A stretch of DNA of 64,000 nt from Eubacteriales bacterium (GCA_045658565.1 JAZOVF010000031.1:64222-128221), one strand, 5' to 3'; counted from the stretch's first letter, positions 5,131 to 54,710 are shown. The notes: generated by a model from the sequence alone, not told the origin. Made by a program: numbers and translations.

Positions 5131-5240
5131 TTTTGTTACCTCCGAAAAGTTCCTTTGTAAAATTTATGTGCCTTTTTCGGTGGATATTACAAAAATTCAA
5201 AAAAACAAACCAATGATAAAAATTAAAAACGGAAATGATA

Positions 5241-5270
5241 AAAAAAGAAGCAGAATTTCTTCTGCTTCTT
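5241..5270 (-). terminator. rho-independent terminator downstream of tRNA-Leu
   Basis: Perfect 10-bp hairpin agaagcagaa/ttctgcttct, flanked by an A-run on one side and a T-run on the other, so it could work in both directions. Confidence 0.65.
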
Positions 5271-5274
5271 TTTT

Positions 5275-5358
5275 TGGTGCGGGAAACGGGACTTGAACCC
5301 GTACATCAAAGATACACGCCCCTCAAACGTGCGCGTCTGCCGATTCCGCCACTCCCGC
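5275..5358 (-). tRNA. tRNA-Leu (anticodon GAG)
   Basis: Manual fold of the reverse complement GCGGGAG...CCCGCACCA: 7-bp acceptor stem, anticodon stem cacgt/gcgtg, loop TTGAGGG, long variable arm, T-arm ACGGG-TTCAAGT-CCCGT, A73, encoded CCA. Confidence 0.85.
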
Positions 5359-5476
5359 GAACATTTGATATTATACACTAAAACTTTTCATTTGTCAATA
5401 GGTTTTTGATAAAAAAATCTAATTTTTTTAAAATTAAATAAAATGAATAAAAAAACAACGCATTTTGCAAAAATGA

Positions 5477-5505
5477 TTGACAAATATGTGAAATTCCTTT
5501 ATAAT
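5477..5505 (+). promoter_or_regulatory. consensus promoter TTGACA-17nt-TATAAT for the PqqD cassette
   Basis: Exact -35 box (5477-5482) and -10 box (5500-5505) with a 17-nt spacer, about 40 nt upstream of the GGAGGG SD and ATG5548. Confidence 0.7.
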
Positions 5506-5547
5506 TAGTGTGTATATTTTCGCGCGAAATAATATTATGGAGGGCTT

Positions 5548-6288
5548 ATGACGAGTTTTAATATTAAGCTTGCGGATAAAAATATTTTCATAGAATGTTT
5601 ATATGAATCCACAAAGACTTTTTGCAAAGATTATATTGTGGATGATATTGCCGCAGATATTACCGTCGGTATAACCCCTGCGGATATACAGTATGAACGT
5701 GAGAAATCGGATAAAGAACGTGAGATAGAAGGACTGCCGCCCTTTGCCCCCTCTCCTGCATATCTTGAAACCCTTGCCCTTTATCGTAAGATTGCCGATG
5801 CGATGATAGATTTTGATATAATTCTTTTCCACGGCTCGGCTATCTCTATGGACGGAGAGGCGTATATATTTACCGCTAAGAGCGGAACAGGAAAGTCTAC
5901 CCACACACGTTTGTGGCGAGAAGTCTTTGGCGACAGAGTTGTTATGATAAATGATGACAAGCCGCTTATAAAGATTACAGACTCGGGTGCTATAGTTTAC
6001 GGCACACCCTGGTGCGGAAAGCATAACCTTGGCTCAAATATATCAGCACCTCTTTATGCGATTGTTTCTCTTGAGCGTTCTAAGGTTAACAGGGTAGAGG
6101 AAAGCGATTCAAGAAAAAGCTTCCCTAAGATTTTAAGCCAGACTTACAGAACAAAAAATATTCTCGGGCTTCAAAAGACGCTTGCGCTTACGGACAAGAT
6201 GTTAAAGAGTGTTAAGATTTTTGAGCTTGGTTGTAATATGGACTCCGAGGCGGCAACGGTCGCATATAACGGAATGAAAGGTAAATAA
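5548..6288 (+). CDS. HPr-kinase-like P-loop protein (putative peptide/protein Ser kinase)
   Basis: 246-aa ORF with Walker A TAKSGTGKSTHT followed by ...DDKPLI...GTPWCGKH. It resembles the HprK C-terminal catalytic domain and lasso-peptide kinases. This is recognition only. Confidence 0.55.
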   Translation: MTSFNIKLADKNIFIECLYESTKTFCKDYIVDDIAADITVGITPADIQYEREKSDKEREIEGLPPFAPSPAYLETLALYRKIADAMIDFDIILFHGSAISMDGEAYIFTAKSGTGKSTHTRLWREVFGDRVVMINDDKPLIKITDSGAIVYGTPWCGKHNLGSNISAPLYAIVSLERSKVNRVEESDSRKSFPKILSQTYRTKNILGLQKTLALTDKMLKSVKIFELGCNMDSEAATVAYNGMKGK

Positions 6289-6292
6289 AACA

Positions 6293-6550
6293 ATGAAATT
6301 AAAAAACAACTTTATTACTCACACATCCGGTGACGAGCAGCTTATGATATCTGCAGGCGGTGATTTTAACGGAATGGTAAGAAGCAACAAGACCGCAGCT
6401 TTTATTATTGATATGCTGAAAGAGGAAACCACAAAAGAAAAGATAGTTGCCGCAATGCTTGAGATATATGATGCAGACGAGGCGATTATTTCTGCTGATG
6501 TAGATAAGGTTATCGATTCTCTTCGCAGCATTGGAGCGATAGATGAGTGA
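6293..6550 (+). CDS. PqqD-family protein (stand-alone RiPP recognition element)
   Basis: 85-aa ORF starting 4 nt after the upstream gene. The pattern (...NKTAAFIIDMLKEETTKEKIVAAMLEIYDADEAIISADVDKVIDSLRSIGAI) is typical of PqqD-like peptide chaperones. Confidence 0.7.
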   Translation: MKLKNNFITHTSGDEQLMISAGGDFNGMVRSNKTAAFIIDMLKEETTKEKIVAAMLEIYDADEAIISADVDKVIDSLRSIGAIDE

Positions 6551-7025
6551 TTTTTCCAGCTATGAGGAAGAGCTTTCCCGTCACGGTAAAATAATACATA
6601 CCAACGTAGGCTTCAGTATGATGCCGCTACTTAGGCAGCATAGGGATGTTATGATAATCGAGCGTCCCGAGGGAAGACTGAAAAAATATGACTGCCCCCT
6701 TTATAAGACAAAAAGTGGAAAGTATATTCTCCACCGTATAATCAAGGTGCGTGAGAATGATTATGTTATCTGCGGCGATAACTGCGTAACATTTGAACGT
6801 GGGGTAACCGATAAGCAGATTATAGGCGTTCTTACCGGTGTTATCCGTGACGGCAAAACTATCACAATGGATAACAAGGGGTATAAGCTGTATTATCATC
6901 TTTGGTGTGATTTTATTTATGTAAGAATTGCAATACTCCATATCATTCGCTTTGTAAAACGTATTCTTGCTCTGCCAAAAAGATTTTTCCGATTAGTAAA
7001 AAGACTTGTAGGCAAGAGAGAATAA
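6543..7025 (+). CDS. S24/S26-family (LexA / signal-peptidase-like) serine peptidase
   Basis: 160-aa ORF overlapping the PqqD gene by 8 nt. It has the nucleophile motif GFSMMPLL, an HRIIKV segment and a hydrophobic C-terminal helix. Confidence 0.65.
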   Translation: MSDFSSYEEELSRHGKIIHTNVGFSMMPLLRQHRDVMIIERPEGRLKKYDCPLYKTKSGKYILHRIIKVRENDYVICGDNCVTFERGVTDKQIIGVLTGVIRDGKTITMDNKGYKLYYHLWCDFIYVRIAILHIIRFVKRILALPKRFFRLVKRLVGKRE

Positions 7026-7286
7026 TCCGAACTCGCTCTAAAGTCTGAATTTTCAGCGCTTTCGGCACTTATCGCTCTTGCAAAGTCCGCACTTGGCTGC
7101 GAGCGCCAAGCACCAAAATCATCTTAAAATTAAGGCTTTAGAGTTCTGCGAATTTAAGAGATAGCTGATTTTGCGTAAGACAAGGTGAAAATTCGAGATA
7201 ATATGCGGATATTATGAGGGTTTTTACCGAAGCATTACACGAAATCAGCATCCTTCAAACGGGTTCGGATTGTTCTCTCTTGCCTA
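7009..7286. repeat. 27-bp inverted repeat (7009-7035 / 7260-7286) enclosing a ~225-nt non-coding insert
   Basis: taggcaagagagaataatccgaactcg pairs with cgggttcggattgttctctcttgccta. The only non-Watson-Crick positions are T/G, i.e. G-U on the + strand RNA. The left arm covers the S24 stop codon and the right arm ends just before the next gene's SD. Confidence 0.85.
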
Positions 7287-7297
7287 AAGGGTAAAAA

Positions 7298-8488
7298 ATG
7301 AAAGAACAAAACAAAAATACGGTATATAATGCCTTAATTTACATAATATCCTGCTGTTTAAACGGAAAAAGAGTTGAAAAAGAGCTTTTGTCTCACCTTG
7401 ACCTTGGGAGTATTTATTCCGCCGCATCAAATCATAGCCTTATAGCTATTGTTGCAACAGCTCTTGAGGATGCAGGCATAGTTTCAAAGCGCGCATCTGA
7501 GTTGAAGCTTAACGCTATAAGAAAAAATATGCTTTTTGATTCCGCCCGAGCCGAGATTTGCACAGCTCTTGATAAAAACTGTATTAAATATCTACCTCTT
7601 AAGGGCGTTATAATGAAAGAACTTTATCCTGCGGTTGGCCTCAGGCAAATGTCTGATAATGATATTTTGTTTGACCCGAATTACCGCAGTCAGGTTCGTG
7701 ACATTATGCTCTCTCTCGGTTACGAGAATAAGCATTTTGGTAGAAGCAACCACGATGTATATATGAAGGAGCCTGTTCTCAATTTTGAAATGCATGTTTC
7801 TTTGTTTGACCACCCTGCGTTGCCTCTGTTTAACGACTATTTCTCTGCCGCTTTTGACAGAGCGGTGTCTGACGGAAAAAGCTCATATGGGTTTGCTATG
7901 ACCGACGAGGATTTTTATATATTCATGAAAGCCCATGAGTATAAGCATTATGCAAATTGTGGCACAGGGCTACGCTCTCTTGTTGATGTTTATGTTTATC
8001 TTATGGCAAAGAGGGAAATCCTTAACTTTGATTATATAACCGCAGAATGCAAAAAGCTTGAAATATCCGAGTATGAGAGGGTAACAAGAGAAATTGCTCT
8101 TAATGTCTTTGCCCCTGAGACAGCAAAGGCATTGGTTTTGGCTGACAGAGGTGAGGGAGAATGCCCCGTATCCGATTACGATGCAGGATTCCTTGGGGAC
8201 TATATCAATATTTCCACCTACGGCTCTCACGAAACATATTTAACAAATCTCCTGACGAGGGAAAAGAAAAGCAAAAATTCAACGGGTGCTACAGCGAAGA
8301 TAAGATATATATTAAGTCTTACATTCCCGAAAATGGAATATTATGAGACAGTGCACCCCGGTGTGTCCAAAAAGAAATATCTCATTCCGTTCCTTTGGAT
8401 AAAGCGTTCTATAATTATTTTGGTAAAGAGGCCCGGCAGAACGATGAAAACCGTATGGGAAGTGGCACGTGCCAAGGTGAAAAAATAA
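7298..8488 (+). CDS. nucleotidyltransferase family protein (uncharacterised NTP_transf_5-like)
   Basis: 396-aa ORF with an AAAGGG SD. The sequence (LPLKGVIMKELYP...MSDNDILF...) resembles the uncharacterised nucleotidyltransferase family often found beside PqqD or lasso genes. Confidence 0.55.
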   Translation: MKEQNKNTVYNALIYIISCCLNGKRVEKELLSHLDLGSIYSAASNHSLIAIVATALEDAGIVSKRASELKLNAIRKNMLFDSARAEICTALDKNCIKYLPLKGVIMKELYPAVGLRQMSDNDILFDPNYRSQVRDIMLSLGYENKHFGRSNHDVYMKEPVLNFEMHVSLFDHPALPLFNDYFSAAFDRAVSDGKSSYGFAMTDEDFYIFMKAHEYKHYANCGTGLRSLVDVYVYLMAKREILNFDYITAECKKLEISEYERVTREIALNVFAPETAKALVLADRGEGECPVSDYDAGFLGDYINISTYGSHETYLTNLLTREKKSKNSTGATAKIRYILSLTFPKMEYYETVHPGVSKKKYLIPFLWIKRSIIILVKRPGRTMKTVWEVARAKVKK

Positions 8489-8500
8489 AGGATAACTATT

Positions 8501-9115
8501 ATGCTTGACTACACAAGAGCAGCAATTTCAAAAACAATTTCTGATATAAAAACTATTGTATTTGTCTCAACCCTTTTGGTTTACATATCGGGTATTATAA
8601 TACCTGTTTATAATCTTCTGTTTTTAAAAGAACCTTTGGTTCTTCATATTGTTTCTCTATGCCTGTCTGTTGCGGTTCTTGTTTTGTATTTGGTTTACAG
8701 AGATACAGACGACAAAAAGGAAAAAAAGAAGCTTAAGGTTAAGCGCAAACAAGTAAAAAAGGCAAACAAAAAGATTAGGTTAGTTTGCCGTGCATATACA
8801 GTTTTGTGCACGGGCTATGCCGTGTTTGCCCTCGGTGAGGAGATTTCCGCATTTTCAATGCTGATTACTTTGTTTGCCATTATCACTCTTATAATAAGCG
8901 TTATTTTTGAGCTTGTTAAGTGGGTAATATCAAGAAGAGCACATATGATTTATAACGCATTCAGAGAGGATTTAGCACCCTTTAATCCTGTAAACAGTGT
9001 AGGAAATATAATTAAGAGAGTAAAAGGCGAGCCTGTCATCAAGCACTCTTATCTTTCGGATAATGATAGGGAAATTCTCGATGATTATATAGATGAGAGA
9101 TATTCAACAAAATAG
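8501..9115 (+). CDS. hypothetical 4-TM membrane protein with Lys-rich loop
   Basis: 204-aa ORF starting 12 nt after the NTase gene. It has two pairs of hydrophobic helices separated by KKEKKKLKVKRKQVKKANKK. No family recognised. Confidence 0.6.
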   Translation: MLDYTRAAISKTISDIKTIVFVSTLLVYISGIIIPVYNLLFLKEPLVLHIVSLCLSVAVLVLYLVYRDTDDKKEKKKLKVKRKQVKKANKKIRLVCRAYTVLCTGYAVFALGEEISAFSMLITLFAIITLIISVIFELVKWVISRRAHMIYNAFREDLAPFNPVNSVGNIIKRVKGEPVIKHSYLSDNDREILDDYIDERYSTK

Positions 9116-9116
9116 T

Positions 9117-9150
9117 AAAAATGCGAGGGCAAATCCCCTCGCATTTTTTA
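9117..9150. terminator. bidirectional rho-independent terminator
   Basis: aaaaatGCGAGGGcaaatcCCCTCGCatttttt: a GC-rich stem flanked by an A-run and a T-run, between convergent genes. Confidence 0.7.
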
Positions 9151-10205
9151 TAATGAAAGATCAGATTTTGTGATATTTGTTGCTGCAAACACTTTCTGCT
9201 CGGCTTCTTCTTTTGTCTTTGCGGTTTTGAAGCAGATAGCATCACCCTTGTCATCAAAAAGAGTTGCAACAAATTCATTGTCTGCTTCCGTAGATTTTAT
9301 TCCATAACGTCTGAGTTCCGCCACGATTGCAGTCATATCACCGGAAAGAGTAAAGCTCTCTGTCGCGGGGATAAAATAGCTGTCACCGAGATTTAAGGGG
9401 GGGCGTTTATGTATCCTTTTCCGTCGGTTACGGTAACGCATCTAAAGATTGCAGAATCTTCCTCGAATACTTTGCATTCATTCTTTAAAACAGCTTTTCT
9501 TGCAGTAAAGTATTTGTTTATTCCTAAAAGATCGCCATCAAGCCTTACACCCTTATATTTAGAAAAATCAAGGACATTCAGAGCTTTTTCTATGTGAAGC
9601 TCTCGTGTATTTCCGTTTTTATCCCGTCTGTCGTAGTCATAGACAAGGTAGATAAGATTGCTGTTTTGCTGTATTTCATAAATAAGGCAACCTGTTCCGA
9701 TGGCATGTATTGTACCTGAGGGAATAAAGAAGCAGTCACCTGCTTTTACCTCAAAGAAATTCATAAGAGCGGTAAGTGTGTTTTCTTTTATGGCCACGTC
9801 AACCTCATCTTTTGAAACCCGTCTATTAAAGCACAGATAAATTCCGGCGCCTTCATCGGCTTCAACGATGTACCACATTTCGGTTTTGCCGTAGCTGTTT
9901 TCATGTGTTAGAGCATAATCATCACTCGGATGCACATGAACCGAGAGATTGTCATTTGCATCAATAAGCTTTATCATAAGAGGGAAGTTATGAAATATTT
10001 ATGCGTTCTTGCCCAAATCTTCCTTTGTAACATATTCAGAAAGAAGAGTGCCGTTCTCGAACTTCGTGGGTCCGTCGGGATGAAATGAAAGCTCCCAGCT
10101 TTCGGCGCATATGCTGTTTTTAGTGGTTTTTCCGTATTTATCTATAAGTCTTGTTCCGCCCCAAAGGTTGTCCTTTAATTCGGGATAAAGTTTTAAAGTT
10201 CTCAT
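9148..10205 (-). pseudogene. manA: class I mannose-6-phosphate isomerase, disrupted (in-frame TAA plus frameshift in a C7 tract)
   Basis: ORFs 9999..10205 and 9393..9977 share a frame and are split by a TAA at 9999-10001 (...EDLGKNA*IFHNFPLMIKLIDA...LSVHVHP). Adding one C to the C7 run (G7 on the + strand, 9397-9403) would join the 9148..9441 frame (...LNLGDSYFIPATESFTLSG). Confidence 0.75.
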
Positions 10206-10363: not shown

Positions 10364-11239
10364 ATGGCGGTTTTTAATGAAGTTGAAGCTCAAAGCGCAT
10401 TCATCGATTCGCTTCGATCCATTGGTGAAAAGCAAAGTGATTTTGACGTCAGCATAAGGTATATTAATAATCTGCCGTCCTATCAACCTTCTCATCATTA
10501 TTTCGAGCTTCTGGCAGTAGCCGAGGGTGAAGTGAAAATTGTTTTAGGAAATGAGACTGTTACTGCTTCTTCACGAAGTGCGTGTTTCTTCTTCCCCGGG
10601 GAGCCGAGAAGACTTGAGGCCGAGAATAATTCTGAAGCAATTGTTTATAGTCTGATTGTGTCACCCTATCTTTTAACAGAGTTTTGTAACCTTGTAGCAC
10701 ACAGAGCCTTAGATCTTCTTTTCTCGGGTCAAGGTCATCATCTTTTCAGAATGCATTTCCGTGATTTTGAGTACTTTGTGCATCTTGCGGAGATTGCCAT
10801 ATCTTCTGAGAAGGAGGAGGCTCGCATACTTTCCAAGCGTGCGGTATACAACCTTGTCAGCCAGCTTATTCTCTCTATTGAGGATAATTCTGCATATCCC
10901 GACTGGTTTGAGATGTTTCTTGAGAAAATTCATCTCCCTGAATACTTCTTAAGCCCGATGAGCGAAATATACAAGCTTGCTCCCTACTCCCAGCCAATGC
11001 TTAACTCCTATTTTAACCGTTTTATGGGTGAAACGCTGGTTTCTTATATTACTAAAATGAAGATTAACTATGCCTGTAGCCTTCTTCGTTTTTCCGAGCT
11101 TACTGTTGTTGACATTGCTTCTAAGACAAAATATAGCAGCTTAAGCCATTTTAACCATATCTTCAAAAAACAGGTTGGAATGACCCCTTCCGAATACCGT
11201 GTGAATAACTCTGTAATAAAAAGCAATTTGAACAAATAA
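10364..11239 (+). CDS. AraC-family transcriptional regulator
   Basis: ORF 10331..11239 trimmed to ATG10364 (GGGGGA SD). The C-terminal HTH_18 pattern is ...SLSHFNHIFKKQVGMTPSEYR. It is divergent from manA. Confidence 0.8.
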   Translation: MAVFNEVEAQSAFIDSLRSIGEKQSDFDVSIRYINNLPSYQPSHHYFELLAVAEGEVKIVLGNETVTASSRSACFFFPGEPRRLEAENNSEAIVYSLIVSPYLLTEFCNLVAHRALDLLFSGQGHHLFRMHFRDFEYFVHLAEIAISSEKEEARILSKRAVYNLVSQLILSIEDNSAYPDWFEMFLEKIHLPEYFLSPMSEIYKLAPYSQPMLNSYFNRFMGETLVSYITKMKINYACSLLRFSELTVVDIASKTKYSSLSHFNHIFKKQVGMTPSEYRVNNSVIKSNLNK

Positions 11240-11311
11240 CTTTTAAAGGTATCGAAAACTCGGTACCTTTATATTATACCATAAAACACACGTTTGGTTA
11301 ATAGCGTTTAA

Positions 11312-11352
11312 TAAAAGCGATGAGAAATCTCTCATCGCTTTTGGCTTTTTTT
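11312..11352. terminator. bidirectional rho-independent terminator
   Basis: Perfect 10-bp hairpin agcgatgaga/tctcatcgct with a T9 run on the + strand and A/T runs on the other side, between convergent genes. Confidence 0.7.
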
Positions 11353-12384
11353 TTAGAAGCTGTAATCGGGATTAACAATTTTACCGGTTTTTGATGACTC
11401 AATAACAGCAAGGCAGGCAACAACGGTTTTTGCACCCTCGTAAACGGTTGTCGTAATAGGAGTATCGTTTATAAGATGGTCAGCAAATTCCTTAAATTCT
11501 GCGGTTGCGTTGTGGTTGTTTATTTCAACAGGGATGATCTCGGGCTCTCCCGCGCCATGACCCTCATCGTCGGCAAAGAATGCCTGGAATGTGTCAGAGC
11601 GGTTATCAAAGATAAGTGTTCCCTTTGTGCCGTAAATGCAGGTACGCATAGTGTAATTGCGCTTGCATCCAGTGGATACAAACACCTTGCCCATAATATT
11701 TCCCGGGAACTTAAGAATAGCAAGGTTAGCATCATCGTATGTAACCTCAGGAAGAAGCTTGTGAGTTCCGTGAGCATAAACCTCGGTAGGGTCAGCGTTT
11801 ACAAGCCATCTGAGAAGGTCTACTGCGTGGCATCCGCCGCCTACAACACCGTTACGAACAGGGGCTGATCTCCAGTTTGTGGGGTTTTCTTCAAACATAT
11901 GCTGGTAGTCGTGAGCATACTCCGACTCAACAAAGTAAAGATCTCCGATTTTTCCCTCTTCGATAATCTGCTTAGCCTGAACAAATGCGGGAGTAAAGCG
12001 GCAGATCTGACCGATCATAAACTTGCACTCGGGGTGAGCCTCAACAGCCTTGACAATCGCGTTTATGTCATCGCGGGTCAGGGCAAGGGGCTTCTCGCAC
12101 ATAATATGCTTACCCGCAGCAAGGCATTCTTCAATTTGTACTCTGTGCTGCTGGTCGGGAGTTGCGATAATAACAGTATTTATATCCTTGTTGTTAACGA
12201 TATCGTGATAATCAGTTGTTCCAATTTCTTTGGGAAGGTTGTTCTCTTCAAGAACCTTAGCGAGTTGGTCGGGATCTGTGTCGCAAATACCACCGATCTC
12301 AGCTCCGTAATTTATCGCACCCTTGAGATGGTTTGAACCCATCCCGAGACCTATAACACCAACAACTAATTTTTCCACCTTCAT
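11353..12384 (-). CDS. Gfo/Idh/MocA-family NAD(P)-dependent oxidoreductase
   Basis: 343-aa ORF with an N-terminal Rossmann motif VGVIGLGMGSNH, the EKP motif (MCEKPLA) and a family-typical C-terminal domain. Confidence 0.85.
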   Translation of the reverse strand: MKVEKLVVGVIGLGMGSNHLKGAINYGAEIGGICDTDPDQLAKVLEENNLPKEIGTTDYHDIVNNKDINTVIIATPDQQHRVQIEECLAAGKHIMCEKPLALTRDDINAIVKAVEAHPECKFMIGQICRFTPAFVQAKQIIEEGKIGDLYFVESEYAHDYQHMFEENPTNWRSAPVRNGVVGGGCHAVDLLRWLVNADPTEVYAHGTHKLLPEVTYDDANLAILKFPGNIMGKVFVSTGCKRNYTMRTCIYGTKGTLIFDNRSDTFQAFFADDEGHGAGEPEIIPVEINNHNATAEFKEFADHLINDTPITTTVYEGAKTVVACLAVIESSKTGKIVNPDYSF

Positions 12385-12415
12385 TTTTATAAAACCTACC
12401 TTTCGGTTAATTTGA

Positions 12416-12444
12416 TTTTAGAACTAATTTAAATTGTTCTAAAA
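12416..12444. promoter_or_regulatory. candidate operator: 9-bp inverted repeat TTTTAGAAC-N11-GTTCTAAAA
   Basis: Perfect palindromic arms in the 5' region of the oxidoreductase gene, with a third AGAAC half-site 14 nt further on. Confidence 0.3.
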
Positions 12445-12511
12445 TTATTATAAAAAACAGAACTTTAATTTGGAATGATAAATCAATAATATAAACATAA
12501 AAAAATGATAA

Positions 12512-13518: not shown

Positions 13519-14106
13519 TTATTTTTTGATTATATAATTCTTGCAGCTTCTGCAGGCACACTCTTCTTTGGAGTTGAACTCGCCGCAAACAGGGCAGAGC
13601 CAGCGACCTGTAATTTCGGGCTTGACGGGAAAGCGCGTTCCGCCAATATGTATAACCTCATCGCCCACCTTGTAATAACCCTCAAGATTTTTAGAAACGT
13701 CTGTAAGCTCCCTTACAATTATATCATCGCCCGAGCGAATATAGAGGGTCAGACGGTTAATGTCTCTGAAATATTTGCTGTACCTCTTCTTCACAAGACC
13801 GCCGTATCCAACAGTCATAATTCCGTTGCTAGCCCCTACGTTTAAGTCTATTTTTTCTATTGTTCCCGAGTAGCCTTTTGTGCTGCCGAATTTTGCGTTT
13901 CTTTTTTCATAAAAGAGGATTGCTAAGGAGATAACAGCGCATGTCGCCGAGATTATAAACAGTAGCGTGTTGCTTCCCTTAAGTAACATTGCAATAATCG
14001 AAGCGGCAAGTAATAAAACTCCAAAAACAAACCAAAATGCAGAGCAGAATATCTCCGACTTGCGTTTTGAGGTAATACCGTCAATGTCATATCTTGTGTT
14101 CATCAT
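13519..14106 (-). CDS. hypothetical 2-TM protein with C-terminal zinc ribbon (paralog 2)
   Basis: 195-aa ORF with two N-terminal hydrophobic helices and a C-terminal CPVCGEFN...CRSC. It overlaps the upstream paralog by 20 nt. Confidence 0.65.
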   Translation of the reverse strand: MMNTRYDIDGITSKRKSEIFCSAFWFVFGVLLLAASIIAMLLKGSNTLLFIISATCAVISLAILFYEKRNAKFGSTKGYSGTIEKIDLNVGASNGIMTVGYGGLVKKRYSKYFRDINRLTLYIRSGDDIIVRELTDVSKNLEGYYKVGDEVIHIGGTRFPVKPEITGRWLCPVCGEFNSKEECACRSCKNYIIKK

Positions 14107-14737
14107 ACTCTCCTTGTCTTAAGATTTTAAGACCGCAGCCCCCACACATCGCGCTCTCTTCGCCGTTAACCTCGCCGCAAAGCGGGCAGGGCTGTCTCTC
14201 GGTTTCTCTGTTTATGACAATAGGAAATTTGCATCCTGCGGGCTTTAAGAGAACATCACCCTCCTCGTATATTTCAAGGTGCGAGCCGTAAAGGCCGGTC
14301 AGCAAGTGAATGCCCCCGTCGTCACTCTTTAAATATATTTCACCGTTAAAGTGCATATTTTTGTGAAAGGCTTTTCTGTTTGCGCGTGTGTTTGGAGCAT
14401 AGGGCATAGCACCGTGGCCGCCTACCTGCTTGTGCCTCATTCCATTGCCTGTGTACGAGCCGCGCTTCATTATTTCATACTCGGATTCTTTTATGTTTTC
14501 TCCTTTTATTTCTCCGGAAAACAGAATTTTAGGATTATATTTATCTAATAATTTAAGGAGAAGCAAAAGGATAACAAAAAGTGCACCGCCCGAAAGGATT
14601 ATAACTTCGCCTATGCATGAGAGGGCAATAAGCAGGGCGCAAATTGCAGCGAGAGAAATGAGGATAAAAAGCTTTGTAAGAAAGCCTTGTTTGTTTTTCT
14701 TTACTGTTAAACATAAGCTGTTTAAATCGTATGTCAT
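14087..14737 (-). CDS. hypothetical 2-TM protein with C-terminal zinc ribbon (paralog 1)
   Basis: 216-aa ORF with an AGGAGG SD and the same architecture as the downstream gene (CPLCGEVN...CGGCG). Confidence 0.65.
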   Translation of the reverse strand: MTYDLNSLCLTVKKNKQGFLTKLFILISLAAICALLIALSCIGEVIILSGGALFVILLLLLKLLDKYNPKILFSGEIKGENIKESEYEIMKRGSYTGNGMRHKQVGGHGAMPYAPNTRANRKAFHKNMHFNGEIYLKSDDGGIHLLTGLYGSHLEIYEEGDVLLKPAGCKFPIVINRETERQPCPLCGEVNGEESAMCGGCGLKILRQGEYDEHKI

Positions 14738-51014: not shown

Positions 51015-52748
51015 ATGAAAAGATGGATGAAATATGTAAAGCCCTACCTTAAATCCTTTATACTGGGTCCGCTCGGTATGATTGTTGAGGTTGTAGGCGA
51101 AATGTTTATGCCCCTTGTTCTGGCTATGATAATAAATGATGGCTATAACGGTACACTTACCGTGGCCTCAAGCATAGGGTATGCGGGTCTGCTTGCAGTT
51201 ATAGTTCTGTTTATGATGACAGGCGGTGTTGCCGGAGCGTACTACGGTGCAAAGGCGTCGGTAAACTTTGCCGCAGACCTAAGGCGGGATGTTTATACCA
51301 AAATACAGAAATTCTCCTTTGCAAATATTGATAAGTTTTCGGCAAGCTCTTTAGTTACCAGAATGACAAATGACGTAACCCAGCTTCAGAATTTTGTTAA
51401 TATGCTTCTCCGTATGGCTTTACGTTCACCCGGTATGTTTATCGGCGGTATAGTAATGGCTGTAAGCTTAAGACCCTCGCTTTCTGTTGTCTTGGCTATA
51501 ACAATGCCCCTTATGCTTATTGTAATATTTATGCTTATAAGGCTTGGATTCCCAAGGTTTGAGAGACTTCAGAAAAAGGTAGATAAACTTAACTCCACCG
51601 TCAGAGAAAATGTTACAAATGTAAGAGTTGTTAAGTCCTTTGTACGTGAGGACTACGAGATAGAAAAGTTTGAAGCCGATAACTCGGCTCTTAAAAAGTC
51701 GGGTATGGATGCCGTAAAGATAATGATATATATGGGTCCTGTTATGAACCTGTTTATGTATGCTACGGTAATTGCCATAATCTGGCTTGGCCACAAAGAG
51801 GTGCTTGACTTCGGTATGCCTGTTGGCGACCTTTCTGCCTTTGTCACCTACACAACCCAGATTCTTTCCTCTCTTATGATGGTTACAATGCTTCTTATGG
51901 TAACCTCACGCGCTATGGCATCGGCAAAGCGTATTTGCGAGGTCCTTGACGAAACACCCGACATCAGAGATACCGAAAAAATGATTTCTGACGCAGAGGT
52001 AAAAGAGGGCAGAGTAGAGTTCCGTGACGTTTCCTACCGTTATTACAAGAACAGCGAGGAAGCCGTGCTTGAAAAAATCAATCTCACAATTCCCGCAGGT
52101 GCAACGGTTGGTATAATAGGCTCAACAGGCTGTGGAAAAACAACTCTTGTTTCTATGATACCCCGACTTTATGACGTTGACGAGGGTGAGGTGCTTATTG
52201 ACGGAATAAATGTTAAGGACTATCCTCTGGTAAATCTTCGTGACGGTATAGGTATGGTGCTTCAAAAAAATCTGCTCTTTGCAGGTAGTATTGCAGATAA
52301 CCTTAAGTGGGGCGATATGGAAGCCTCGAATGAAGAAATCAAGAAAATGGCTACTTATGCTGCGGCAGACAAGTTTGTATCCACATTTAAGGATGGATAT
52401 AATACCGAGCTTGATAAGGGCGGAAGCAACCTTTCGGGCGGTCAAAAGCAGAGACTTTGTATTGCGAGAGCATTACTTAAAAAGCCGAAAATTCTTATCC
52501 TCGACGACTCAACAAGCGCAGTTGATACTGCAACCGAGGCTCAAATTAGAGAGGCTTTCAGAAACGAGATTCCCGATTGTACAAAAATAATTATCGCTCA
52601 GCGCATAAGCTCTGTTAAGGACTCGGATATTATAGTTGTTATGAACGACGGTAAGATAACCGGTGTCGGTACTCACGAAGAGCTTCTTGAAAATAACGCT
52701 GAGTATAGCGAAATATTCTATTCTCAAATGGATAAAAAGGAGGCGTAA
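51015..52748 (+). CDS. ABC exporter, fused permease/ATPase (heterodimer subunit 1)
   Basis: 577-aa ORF with a 6-TM domain, then GSTGCGKTT, LSGGQKQRLCIARAL and ILILDDSTS. Confidence 0.9.
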   Translation: MKRWMKYVKPYLKSFILGPLGMIVEVVGEMFMPLVLAMIINDGYNGTLTVASSIGYAGLLAVIVLFMMTGGVAGAYYGAKASVNFAADLRRDVYTKIQKFSFANIDKFSASSLVTRMTNDVTQLQNFVNMLLRMALRSPGMFIGGIVMAVSLRPSLSVVLAITMPLMLIVIFMLIRLGFPRFERLQKKVDKLNSTVRENVTNVRVVKSFVREDYEIEKFEADNSALKKSGMDAVKIMIYMGPVMNLFMYATVIAIIWLGHKEVLDFGMPVGDLSAFVTYTTQILSSLMMVTMLLMVTSRAMASAKRICEVLDETPDIRDTEKMISDAEVKEGRVEFRDVSYRYYKNSEEAVLEKINLTIPAGATVGIIGSTGCGKTTLVSMIPRLYDVDEGEVLIDGINVKDYPLVNLRDGIGMVLQKNLLFAGSIADNLKWGDMEASNEEIKKMATYAAADKFVSTFKDGYNTELDKGGSNLSGGQKQRLCIARALLKKPKILILDDSTSAVDTATEAQIREAFRNEIPDCTKIIIAQRISSVKDSDIIVVMNDGKITGVGTHEELLENNAEYSEIFYSQMDKKEA

Positions 52749-52751
52749 GTT

Positions 52752-54710
52752 ATGGCAAGATCACTCGAAGAGCTTAAAAAGCAATATAACAGCGTCTCCC
52801 ACGGTCAATCCCTAAGAGGCGGTGGTCCCGGCAGAGGTCCCGGTCCGAGAGCTAAGGGTAAGCCAAAGGATATAGGTAAAACTATCGCAAGGCTTCTCTC
52901 CTATGTAGGAAAATATAAATTAAGACTTGTTTTTGTCTTTCTCTGTATGATTCTTACAACCCTCTCCTCGCTTGCAGGCGGCTATTTAATTGTCCCTATG
53001 ATAAACAGGATAACCGTAGCGGTGAGTCCCGATGCAGAGCTTAATCCAAGCCCCCTTGCGGATTTTGCTGACGGAATAATTGAAGCCTTTGTTTCAACTC
53101 CTCTCCTAAAGAGCCTCACATCAAATGTTGTGGGTGCGGTAAGTGTTTATGCCGTTGGCGCGCTGATTATCTTAGGTACTGTGTATCTTATTTCTGCCTT
53201 TGGCAGCTATCTGCAGGCGAGAATTATGCTCTCCATCTCCCAAGGCTCTATTCAGGCAATAAGAGATGACCTGTTTAAAAAGCTGCAGGCTCTGCCTGTC
53301 AGATATTTCGACTCTCATCCCACAGGCGAGATAATGAGCCGCTTTACAAACGATGTTGATAATATCGATGTAATGCTTAACAACTCCTTAACATCAATAG
53401 TCAGCGGCGGTGTAAGTCTTATTGGTACATTTGTCTTTATGCTTACAACGAATGTTTATCTTACGATAATAACCGTTGTATTTGTTCCGCTTCTTGTTTA
53501 TGCCGTTGGAATCATAGGTAAAAATTCTTCTAAGTATTACGGTGAACAGCAGGCGGCTCTCGGTGCTGTAAACGGCTATATTGAGGAAACCATAAGCGGA
53601 CAAAAGGTTATTAAGGTCTTTAACCACGAGGACGAGTGCGTTGAAGAAATGGGCATCATTAACGAGGACCTGCGCTCCAAGCAGGAAAAAGCCCAGTTCT
53701 GGGGCGGTGTAACAGGCCCGATAATGCACAACATCAGCCTTATCTCCTATGCCGTAACTCTCGGTGTCGGCGGTATTCTTATAGTTCTTACAGGCTTTAC
53801 ACCCGGTGAGCTTACCGCTTTTGCCAATTATTCAAAGCAGTTCTCAATGCCGATAAACCAGCTCTCAATGCAGGTGTCAACTCTCTTTGCTGCCCTTGCG
53901 GGTGCTGAGCGTGTGTTTAAGGTTATGGATGAGACTCCCGAGGAGCCTGACATAGAGAATGCATCCACCGAGCCTATCAAGGGTCATGTTATTTTCGAGA
54001 ACGTAACCTTTGGCTACAACCCCGATAAGGTGGTATTAAAGAACATCTCCCTTTATGCAAAGCCGGGGCAAAAGATTGCCTTTGTTGGCTCAACAGGTGC
54101 GGGTAAAACCACAGTAACCAACCTCTTAAATCGCTTTTATGATATTGCCGAGGGAACAATAACCATAGACGGCAGACCCATAAAGGAGTATAGCAGGGAA
54201 TTCTTACGTAAGAATATTGCAATGGTGCTCCAGGATACCCACCTCTTTACAGGTACGGTTATGGAGAATATCCGCTACGGCAGACTTGACGCAACCGACG
54301 AAGAAGTAATAGCCGCCGCAAAGACCGCCAGCGCACATAGCTTTATTATGCGTCTTGAAAACGGCTACGATACCGTTCTCGAGGGCGACGGAGCAAACCT
54401 CTCTCAGGGACAGCGACAGCTTCTTAACATTGCAAGAGCCGCTCTTTCAAAAGCTCCAATCCTTGTCCTTGACGAAGCAACCAGCTCTGTCGATACCCGT
54501 ACCGAAAGACACATCGAGCACGGTATGGATAGACTTATGAAGGACCGCACAACCTTCGTCATAGCCCACCGCCTTTCCACAGTCCGTAATTCCAATGCAA
54601 TTATGGTACTGGAGCAGGGCGAAATTATCGAGCGCGGCGACCACGACGACCTTCTCAAGCTCCAAGGCAGATACTACGAGCTTTACACAGGAAAGAAGGA
54701 GCTAGACTAA
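52752..54710 (+). CDS. ABC exporter, fused permease/ATPase (heterodimer subunit 2)
   Basis: 652-aa ORF with a Gly/Pro/Arg-rich N-terminus and a TM domain, then GSTGAGKTT, LSQGQRQLLNIARA and ILVLDEATS. Confidence 0.9.
   Translation: MARSLEELKKQYNSVSHGQSLRGGGPGRGPGPRAKGKPKDIGKTIARLLSYVGKYKLRLVFVFLCMILTTLSSLAGGYLIVPMINRITVAVSPDAELNPSPLADFADGIIEAFVSTPLLKSLTSNVVGAVSVYAVGALIILGTVYLISAFGSYLQARIMLSISQGSIQAIRDDLFKKLQALPVRYFDSHPTGEIMSRFTNDVDNIDVMLNNSLTSIVSGGVSLIGTFVFMLTTNVYLTIITVVFVPLLVYAVGIIGKNSSKYYGEQQAALGAVNGYIEETISGQKVIKVFNHEDECVEEMGIINEDLRSKQEKAQFWGGVTGPIMHNISLISYAVTLGVGGILIVLTGFTPGELTAFANYSKQFSMPINQLSMQVSTLFAALAGAERVFKVMDETPEEPDIENASTEPIKGHVIFENVTFGYNPDKVVLKNISLYAKPGQKIAFVGSTGAGKTTVTNLLNRFYDIAEGTITIDGRPIKEYSREFLRKNIAMVLQDTHLFTGTVMENIRYGRLDATDEEVIAAAKTASAHSFIMRLENGYDTVLEGDGANLSQGQRQLLNIARAALSKAPILVLDEATSSVDTRTERHIEHGMDRLMKDRTTFVIAHRLSTVRNSNAIMVLEQGEIIERGDHDDLLKLQGRYYELYTGKKELD

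Follow-up and report, generated by a model that had tools for sequence, protein, structure and literature searches.

The stretch of Eubacteriales DNA analysed here (GCA_045658565.1, JAZOVF010000031.1:64222-128221; 64,000 nucleotides, hereafter the window) carries at positions 5,477-9,150 a cassette of five genes, G1 to G5, that very probably is a trimmed version of the gene cluster for linear polyphosphorylated peptides (LPPs), which belong to the RiPPs, peptides made by the ribosome and modified after translation. Judged by sequence, G1 would be the counterpart of LppK, G2 of LppB, G3 of LppS and G4 of LppN, with G5 as an addition; the cassette would be a new example of a known system, not a new system. 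The LPP family, encoded by lppA-K-B-S-D-N in Paenibacillus alginolyticus and other Bacilli, was described by Popov et al. (Nat Commun, May 2026; PMC13381572): LPPs are relatives of lasso peptides without the ring-forming enzyme, and the cluster specifies a precursor (A), an HprK-like kinase (K), a discrete RiPP recognition element (RRE; B), a SipW-like signal peptidase I (S), an MsbA-like pump (D) and an NTP transferase (N). A previous sequence-only reading of the window had proposed a cyclase-less lasso relative that keeps an HprK-like kinase, a PqqD domain and an NTP_transf_5 enzyme and in which an S26-type peptidase replaces the B2 protease. This core inference was right, since the K-B-S-N content and order match those of LPP clusters. 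The pathway that it regarded as distinct and uncharacterised is indeed distinct from the lasso pathway but has already been characterised as LPP (PMC13381572), and its label of a tailoring cassette has to be given up, the genes being the core of the LPP pathway. Its expectation that a C-terminal Ser is phosphorylated also failed: in the one characterised LPP cluster the kinase targets Ser3 of the core, near the N-terminus.

The peptidase G3 carries the GFSMxPxL serine motif of LexA/signal-peptidase-type proteases reported earlier, in the form GFSMMPLL, and a structural model (predicted local distance difference test, pLDDT, 81.8) agrees on the fold: a beta-barrel followed by a long C-terminal helix, with structural matches to LexA, SipA, UmuD', lambda cI and SpsB. 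No match to G3 was found in Pfam, and its homologues are named 'S24/S26 family peptidase' at NCBI. Residues invariant in the family include G23-x-S25-M-x-P-L, L63-H64-R65, G78-D79 and E85. The Ser-Lys dyad of S24 peptidases (LexA/UmuD) is absent from G3, where the general-base position is held by the invariant His64, which aligns with the catalytic Lys of a Bacillus type I signal peptidase (SPase I). A His at this position, alongside a weak TIGR02228 match, is what we take to be the endoplasmic reticulum (ER)/archaeal, or SipW-type, arrangement. Alignment of the G3 family profile with LppS (hhalign; probability 97%, E 8.7e-11, 24% identity) placed S25, H64 and E85, all three invariant in 25 homologues, opposite the catalytic S29, H68 and D93 of LppS; Asp90, initially proposed from spacing as the third catalytic residue, was replaced by Glu85 after this alignment. 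By sequence and model, G3 thus probably corresponds to an LppS-like leader peptidase of the SipW/archaeal, signal-peptidase-I-like type. Like SipW, Sec11 and archaeal (ER-type, S26B) SPase I, it has a GxSMxP serine box and a GDN box, an xHRx histidine box where the bacterial enzymes have Lys, and the beta-barrel fold of LexA and signal peptidases, but it differs from them in its basic amphipathic C-terminal helix and in lacking an N-terminal membrane anchor, for which reason its catalytic domain is predicted to be cytoplasmic; moreover, the characterised homologue is RRE-dependent and acts on a RiPP leader, not on a Sec signal peptide. The G3 gene overlaps G2 by 8 nt, so that a SipW-like peptidase is encoded next to a discrete RRE.

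G1 contains the P-loop SGTGKST, as read before. Its resemblance to the HprK catalytic domain holds for fold and motifs and not for the family model: G1 matched no Pfam family in the library used, hmmscan gave nothing for Hpr_kinase_C (PF07475) at E <= 1, and the NCBIfam models ScmC, HprK_rel_A and HprK_rel_B were matched only below threshold (15-17 bits vs cut-offs of 125-200). An AlphaFold (AF2) model built from 20 homologues (pLDDT 93.6) retrieved PEPCK (E 2e-7) and then HprK/P (E 1e-5) in Foldseek. Invariant in the family are H95-G-S, S112-GTGKS-T118 and D136-D137, the last pair corresponding by motif to the metal-site residues D158/D159 that the lasso kinase PsmK requires for its activity. 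BLASTP aligned G1 with LppK over 110 aa (24% identity, E 1e-7, against the published LppK fragment, a partial sequence) and with the lasso kinase PbaK over a 28-aa P-loop region and nothing further. Taken with the model, these alignments suggest that G1 corresponds to an LppK-like P-loop kinase. Its homologues form more than 7,700 clusters, carry the newer Pfam family PF27840 'ScmC', and include fusions of G1 with PqqD. Such fusions, of 331-333 aa, were seen in the related loci L005-L008 and L012 (P0070, P0072, P0073, P0085, P0088 and P0099), which argues for a direct physical coupling of kinase and PqqD domain. The SynChlorMet ScmC/ScmD and HprK-related kinase A/B systems (TIGR04249, TIGR04352, TIGR04355) likewise pair an HprK-superfamily P-loop protein with a PqqD-family protein, but G1 lies far below their cut-offs and the radical-SAM/SPASM partners are absent.

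G2 is, as had been stated, a stand-alone PqqD domain of 85 aa (Pfam PqqD, E 8.5e-14). Its nearest curated family is the lasso PqqD chaperone (35 bits, under the cut-off of that family), and its family profile matched the lasso B1 structures TbiB1, TfuB1 and PbaB1 (9x90). In a weak hhalign alignment, N32, Y59, D60 and D69 of G2 face N33, Y60, E61 and D70 of LppB, and equivalents of the residues with which LppB fixes Tyr and Pro are conserved in G2, including the Asp that bonds the Tyr hydroxyl. G2 would be counted as a discrete, LppB-like PqqD/RRE. The assignment of G4 to the NTP_transf_5 nucleotidyltransferases was confirmed (PF14907, E 3.6e-36); L101-K-G103, D120-N-D122 and E164 are invariant in its family, and D120/D122 correspond by motif to D134/D136 of PsmN, both needed for the activity of that enzyme, which is itself needed for hexose addition to a phosphorylated lasso peptide. 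The protein ends in an amphipathic tail. G4 therefore appears to correspond to a nucleotidyltransferase-fold enzyme like LppN and PsmN. Plasmid matches to G4 in Ruminococcus albus and Bacillus are NTP_transf_5 genes that stand alone within sugar loci or other biosynthetic loci; they are uninformative. Searches of PDB sequences with G1, G2, G3 and G4 returned nothing useful.

A scan of species-representative genomes returned at least 576 matching stretches, 80 of which were analysed as related loci (numbered L), all from Clostridia (Oscillospiraceae, Ruminococcus, Lachnospiraceae and Acutalibacteraceae). The genes are syntenic among these relatives: G1, G2 and G3 occur together in 57 of the 80 loci and G1 to G4 in 35, and 45 loci have an ATP-binding cassette (ABC) exporter of about 570 aa (ABC_membrane plus ABC_tran), usually between G3 and G4. 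No further recurring gene family was found among the 80. In the Ruminococcus metagenome-assembled genome (MAG) RUI288, copies of the cassette lie on three contigs (L030, L075 and L078). Published LPP work covers Bacilli; the pathway is shown here to be widespread in gut and rumen Clostridia.

The Clostridial clusters have a well-conserved leader family of their own. A YxxPxL motif in a 57-aa small open reading frame (sORF) of Butyrivibrio fibrisolvens pNP243 prompted a search for precursors, which revealed a conserved family of sORFs of 33-65 aa with the leader MKE.YE.PEMEVVEFETEDVIT(T/A)S (in full M-K-E-x-Y-E-T-P-E-M-E-V-V-E-F-E-T-E-D-V-I-T-(T/A)-S); the core after it is short, acidic and variable. 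A hidden Markov model (HMM) of the leader located the family in 32 of the 80 loci, in most cases no more than 1 kb upstream of G1; the member in L085 reads MKEVYETPEMEVVEFETEDIITASGDTPFVPAEP, and L029 has two precursor sORFs (754-876 and 2791-2916). NCBIfam and Pfam contain no model for this Clostridial family. Its leaders share YxxP...FET...S with LppA, the LPP leader consensus being YxxPxVLxHQxIxFETxxS (PMC13381572), but are three residues shorter from YxxP to FET and have the conserved Ser at about +7, not +3. Cleavage after 'IT(T/A)S', suggested by the -3/-1 rule, was downgraded once FET had been aligned with F-3, E-2 and T-1 of LppA. The pNP243 sORF itself (L096, 6145-6318, minus strand) is Cys-rich (MKKAYVKPELKASMNG...CPDYNTGSNKEQYCYDPCWNPCYNPCQPSYGRIW) and may represent a different, Cys-rich branch of the family; it belongs to a distantly related cassette, where it is flanked by a G1-like gene and a PqqD/S24-S26 pair, with PssD/PssE glycosyltransferases alongside and a complete lasso cluster at a distance of about 10 kb.

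The window agrees with the published LPP clusters in its enzymes (an HprK-like kinase, a discrete PqqD RRE, a Ser/His/acid peptidase like SipW and an NTP_transf_5 enzyme) and in their order, in the lack of a macrolactam cyclase and in peptidase catalytic residues that align, and its relatives have YxxP...FET...S precursors and an ABC exporter at the published positions. It differs in lacking lppA and lppD, in having G5 and an insertion that resembles a miniature inverted-repeat transposable element (MITE), in its host (a gut/rumen Clostridia MAG, not a Bacillus relative), in the G3 branch, which the published paper did not analyse, and in lying outside any capsule locus. Several observations weigh against the LPP assignment. 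At 5,477-9,150 there is no gene for an MsbA-like exporter (lppD); the leader HMM and relaxed patterns found no precursor in the 64-kb window, and within about 20 kb around the cassette no member of the leader family was found in the window's clade. The window's own G1 has no precomputed Pfam ScmC match and, as said, falls far under the NCBIfam cut-offs. The alignment of the G2 family profile with LppB is weak (probability 34%, E 4e-4), and LppB (PDB 9x8z) was not among the G2-profile matches in PDB sequences, though PbaB1 was. Clostridial peptidases fall into minor similarity clusters of the published dataset, outside the characterised cluster 1, and the insertion could reduce expression of G4 and G5. 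The same dataset holds a few Clostridial peptidases; G3 shares 31% identity (E 2e-23) with one of them, whose source is an uncultured Ruminococcus. Popov et al. do not mention these peptidases in their main text (PMC13381572).

In P. alginolyticus, LppK adds several phosphates to core Ser3, LppS (S29, H68 and D93; mutant data) cuts after F-3, E-2 and T-1 only when LppB presents the substrate and cuts the phosphorylated precursor best, and deletion of LppN had no detectable effect in a heterologous host (PMC13381572). By analogy with lppAKBSDN of P. alginolyticus, for which the steps were demonstrated by experiment, the PqqD domain would bind the YxxP motif in the precursor leader, the kinase would place several phosphates on one Ser near the N-terminus of the core, and the PqqD domain would present the leader to the cytoplasmic Ser/His/acid signal-peptidase-like enzyme for cleavage after Phe-Glu-Thr; the NTP_transf_5 enzyme may then add a further decoration to the phosphate, and an ABC pump would export the product. 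For the window, homology, conserved catalytic residues and purifying selection suggest that the four enzymes are active; most likely they process a YxxP-leader precursor encoded elsewhere, outside the 64 kb, and export would use another transporter or possibly G5.

Are the genes instead the functionless remnant of an LPP cluster, left behind when precursor and exporter were lost and the MITE-like element was inserted? The absence of lppA and lppD and the insertion between G3 and G4 fit such decay, as does the adjoining mannose-6-phosphate isomerase gene, an apparent pseudogene, which would indicate that gene decay does happen at this locus. Yet all five open reading frames (ORFs) are intact and full length, and all five genes are under purifying selection: relative to L089, ratios of nonsynonymous to synonymous substitution rates (dN/dS) are 0.10 for G1, 0.06 for G2, 0.05 for G3, 0.12 for G4 and 0.19 for G5, thus low also in the two genes past the insertion. 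Furthermore, at least eight species-level relatives and the cultured Porcipelethomonas ammoniilytica have retained this K-B-S-N arrangement lacking A and D, and the insertion left the Shine-Dalgarno sequence and start codon of G4 intact. We therefore consider decay very improbable. The window shows that selection can maintain a minimal K-B-S-N module to which neither precursor nor exporter is linked; genome-mining tools that insist on a precursor close by or on a known core enzyme would overlook or misassign such loci.

The insertion also accounts for the gap in which the sequence-only reading had placed its candidate precursors. The 272-nt space between G3 and G4 results from a MITE-like element with internal hairpins, whose two inverted repeat arms, at 7009-7035 and 7260-7286, show 93% complementarity; it sits precisely at the junction of G3 and G4 and is absent from the closest relatives L089-L091, in which G3 and G4 overlap by 4 nt and G3 is 91% identical to that of the window. 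The element supplies the last five codons of G3; it has no Rfam match and no second copy within the window. Both sORFs named earlier exist (7214..7294 on the plus strand and 37 aa on the minus strand) but are not precursors, because they lie inside this lineage-specific insertion, and a precursor within the gap was rejected. Foreign genes also interrupt the cluster in L052 (197 and 300 aa, 10959-12451, between the kinase and PqqD genes) and in L073 (524 aa, between G1 and G2), so that the cluster tolerates interruption, as in the window.

Another alternative is an accessory module that serves a canonical lasso cluster elsewhere in the genome, from which it is detached. Lasso clusters of the paeninodin/pseudomycoidin type (padeCAKB1B2D; psmCAKB1B2ND) share with the LPP type the PqqD B1 protein, the HprK-family kinase and its DD metal site, an ABC exporter and an NTP_transf_5 enzyme like PsmN; their genes follow a parallel K-B1-protease-N/D order, and their [Y/W]xxP leaders are akin. 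Unlike these clusters, the window locus has neither an Asn-synthetase-like cyclase nor a transglutaminase-type B2, G1 aligns with lasso kinases around the P-loop only, and a linear product is expected. The set that defines a lasso cluster (cyclase, B2 and a short precursor with a ring-forming Asp/Glu at position 7-9) is not present in the window. Pfam searches with the large ORFs of the window found no Asn-synthase domain, and tblastn with the lasso cyclase, B2 protease and lasso-type kinase of B. fibrisolvens gave no match in 1.40 Mb (96 loci plus the window), although the genes of the neighbouring B. fibrisolvens cassette matched 30-95 loci in the same search; no lasso C or B2 gene lies near any of these loci. 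In favour of detachment, lasso enzymes are also encoded by over half of the LPP-bearing bacteria of the published set, with linkage to lasso genes for about one third of LPP clusters or peptidase genes (PMC13381572), and the pNP243 relative of the cassette lies close to a complete lasso cluster. However, the Trp-type lasso leader is not accepted by LppB, the LPP pathway functions alone in B. subtilis (PMC13381572), and the fuller Clostridial clusters have precursor sORFs of their own. Such a detached origin is highly improbable.

A further observation concerns the surroundings of the fuller clusters, which in at least 16 loci adjoin a gene for a secreted, acidic, low-complexity protein. Most of these proteins are lipoproteins with the C-terminal end ...[IV]ELP[FMLRE][IV]P(xx); in three cases the protein is membrane-anchored and the motif directly follows the signal peptide (Table 1). 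In loci with both sORF and lipoprotein, the genes run sORF, lipoprotein, K, B, S, D, N. In four loci compared, the peptide core's C-terminal portion resembles the lipoprotein motif and the two appear to co-vary. No curated family model or paper covering the ELP motif was found. Many of the Clostridial clusters thus adjoin a surface protein with a motif that follows the peptide core, which provides a concrete lead to LPP function: we tentatively propose, as an unlikely but distinct reading, that in gut and rumen Clostridia the LPP pathway is coupled to cell-surface proteins, with the peptide as mimic, ligand or competitor of the motif or the protein as a second substrate.

Since K-B-S-N stays under selection in the window's clade with no precursor or pump linked to it, the module could there have taken on a new role, the modification of an unlinked protein. 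A related reading is that in the clade K-B-S-N acts on proteins, such as surface lipoproteins or BspA-type leucine-rich repeat proteins, and not on a small dedicated peptide. The secreted acidic lipoproteins and membrane-anchored proteins that often precede fuller clusters, with an [IV]ELP[FM..][IV]P motif that co-varies with the cores, agree with it, as do the length of published LPP precursors (up to 200 aa; PMC13381572) and the want of a small precursor near the cassette in the clade. Against it, neither the window nor its clade has a motif protein, and the motif proteins themselves bear Sec/lipoprotein signal peptides, whereas G1-G4 appear cytoplasmic, and have no YxxP...FET leader; we hold this reading to be very improbable and retain processing of an LPP-type precursor as the preferred reading.

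G5 shows the four hydrophobic segments and the poly-Lys loop described for it before. It is restricted to the close clade of the window (L001-L004, L011 and L089-L091), and its matches to SLATT/DUF4231-like families are all sub-threshold; it is a lineage-specific accessory membrane protein. Its tail 'EDLAPFNP' was considered as a copy of the ELPFVP motif and rejected, because the tail is not conserved. The weak matches of G5 to SLATT_5, DUF4231 and RTasSLATT, together with a SLATT_1/DUF4231 gene near the cassette in L092, might point to a defence or conflict system, with G5 as a SLATT-like membrane protein that responds to a signal from the nucleotidyltransferase. We give this almost no credence: every G5 match stays below its curated cut-off in a protein confined to one small clade, the core genes match a demonstrated RiPP pathway and the locus lies amid housekeeping genes; an anti-phage system was rejected, PADLOC having found nothing for G1-G4.

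The spacings of the five co-directional genes (4, -8, 272 and 12 nt), the tRNA gene on one flank and the bidirectional terminator on the other were borne out by the coordinates (Table 1).

Table 1. Coordinates of the cassette and its flanking signals in the window, and of motif-bearing surface proteins in related loci (L)
Feature	Position	Strand	Description
G1	5548-6288	+	ORF call, 246 aa
G2	6293-6550	+	ORF call, 85 aa
G3	6543-7025	+	ORF call, 160 aa
G4	7298-8488	+	ORF call, 396 aa
G5	8501-9115	+	ORF call, 204 aa
Putative sigma-70-type promoter of the cassette	5477-5505	+	TTGACA-17-TATAAT, 12/12 match; function inferred
tRNA-Leu(GAG)	5275-5358	minus	
Hairpin terminator	9117-9148		13-pair stem, 6 G-C, T runs on either side
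MITE-like element, about 278 nt	7009-7286		27-nt terminal inverted repeats, internal hairpins
Motif lipoprotein, L085	5392-5898		core ..DTPFVPAEP; lipoprotein ..IELPFVPAF
Motif lipoprotein, L077	3947-4402		core ..ETPFVPFS; lipoprotein ..IELPFVPAD
Motif lipoprotein, L052	9425-9982		core ..ITTPEI; lipoprotein ..IELPEI
Motif lipoprotein, L059			172 aa, upstream of G1; core ..GEIDPDE; lipoprotein ..GEIDPDL
Motif lipoprotein, L068	229-798		
Motif lipoprotein, L058	1925-2458		
Motif lipoprotein, L063	9430-9960		
Motif lipoprotein, L051	8569-9030		
Motif lipoprotein, L048	1674-2138		
Motif lipoprotein, L026	8216-8611		
Motif lipoprotein, L028	8369-8833		
Motif lipoprotein, L072	5118-5651		
N-terminal motif variant, L027	3917-4615		
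N-terminal motif variant, L032	6425-7147		
N-terminal motif variant, L074	9475-9999		

The exact promoter consensus upstream of the genes was likewise confirmed, and the closest relative of the cassette, L089, has identical hexamers and spacing at this place; promoter-like sites in the region are not in excess over shuffled sequence (16 vs 13.3 ± 3.7). A second perfect 12/12 promoter (5398-5370, minus strand) is directed at tRNA-Leu(GAG), so that two consensus sigma-70 promoters point away from each other across 78 nt, toward the tRNA gene and toward the cassette. A functional tie to tRNA-Leu(GAG) was considered and rejected, the adjacency being restricted to the window's clade and L092. The AT-richness noted earlier stands as a slight difference (GC 0.394 in the cassette vs 0.433 in the window) and is weak as evidence of an island, 7.6% of equal-sized windows being as low. 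In L089-L091 the order is M20 peptidase, TspO, an ABC-2 transporter pair, tRNA-Leu, G1-G5 and mannose-6-phosphate isomerase; the locus is syntenic throughout the window's clade, which points to vertical inheritance.

The transporter pair of these relatives (ABC_tran plus ABC2_membrane) is absent from the window (5131-5547 vs 5998-9008 in L089); in L089-L091 it separates TspO from tRNA-Leu, and L001-L003 have it upstream of the cassette. An unrelated ABC pair is found at 51015-54710. The convergent mannose-6-phosphate isomerase gene (9148-10205, minus strand), with which the cassette shares its terminator, has an in-frame stop at about codon 69 and a frameshift at about codon 268; it is intact (352 aa) in L089 and L009, and in the window it is either a pseudogene or a product of misassembly. 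Housekeeping genes account for the window's large ORFs (DXS, a MiaB-like enzyme, MutS, MutL, TGT, Lon, PBP1 and GltX). Two adjacent ORFs at 13519-14737 (minus strand; 195 and 216 aa) have no Pfam match at E <= 1e-5, and their positional counterparts are kept in L089-L091 (196 and 222 aa).

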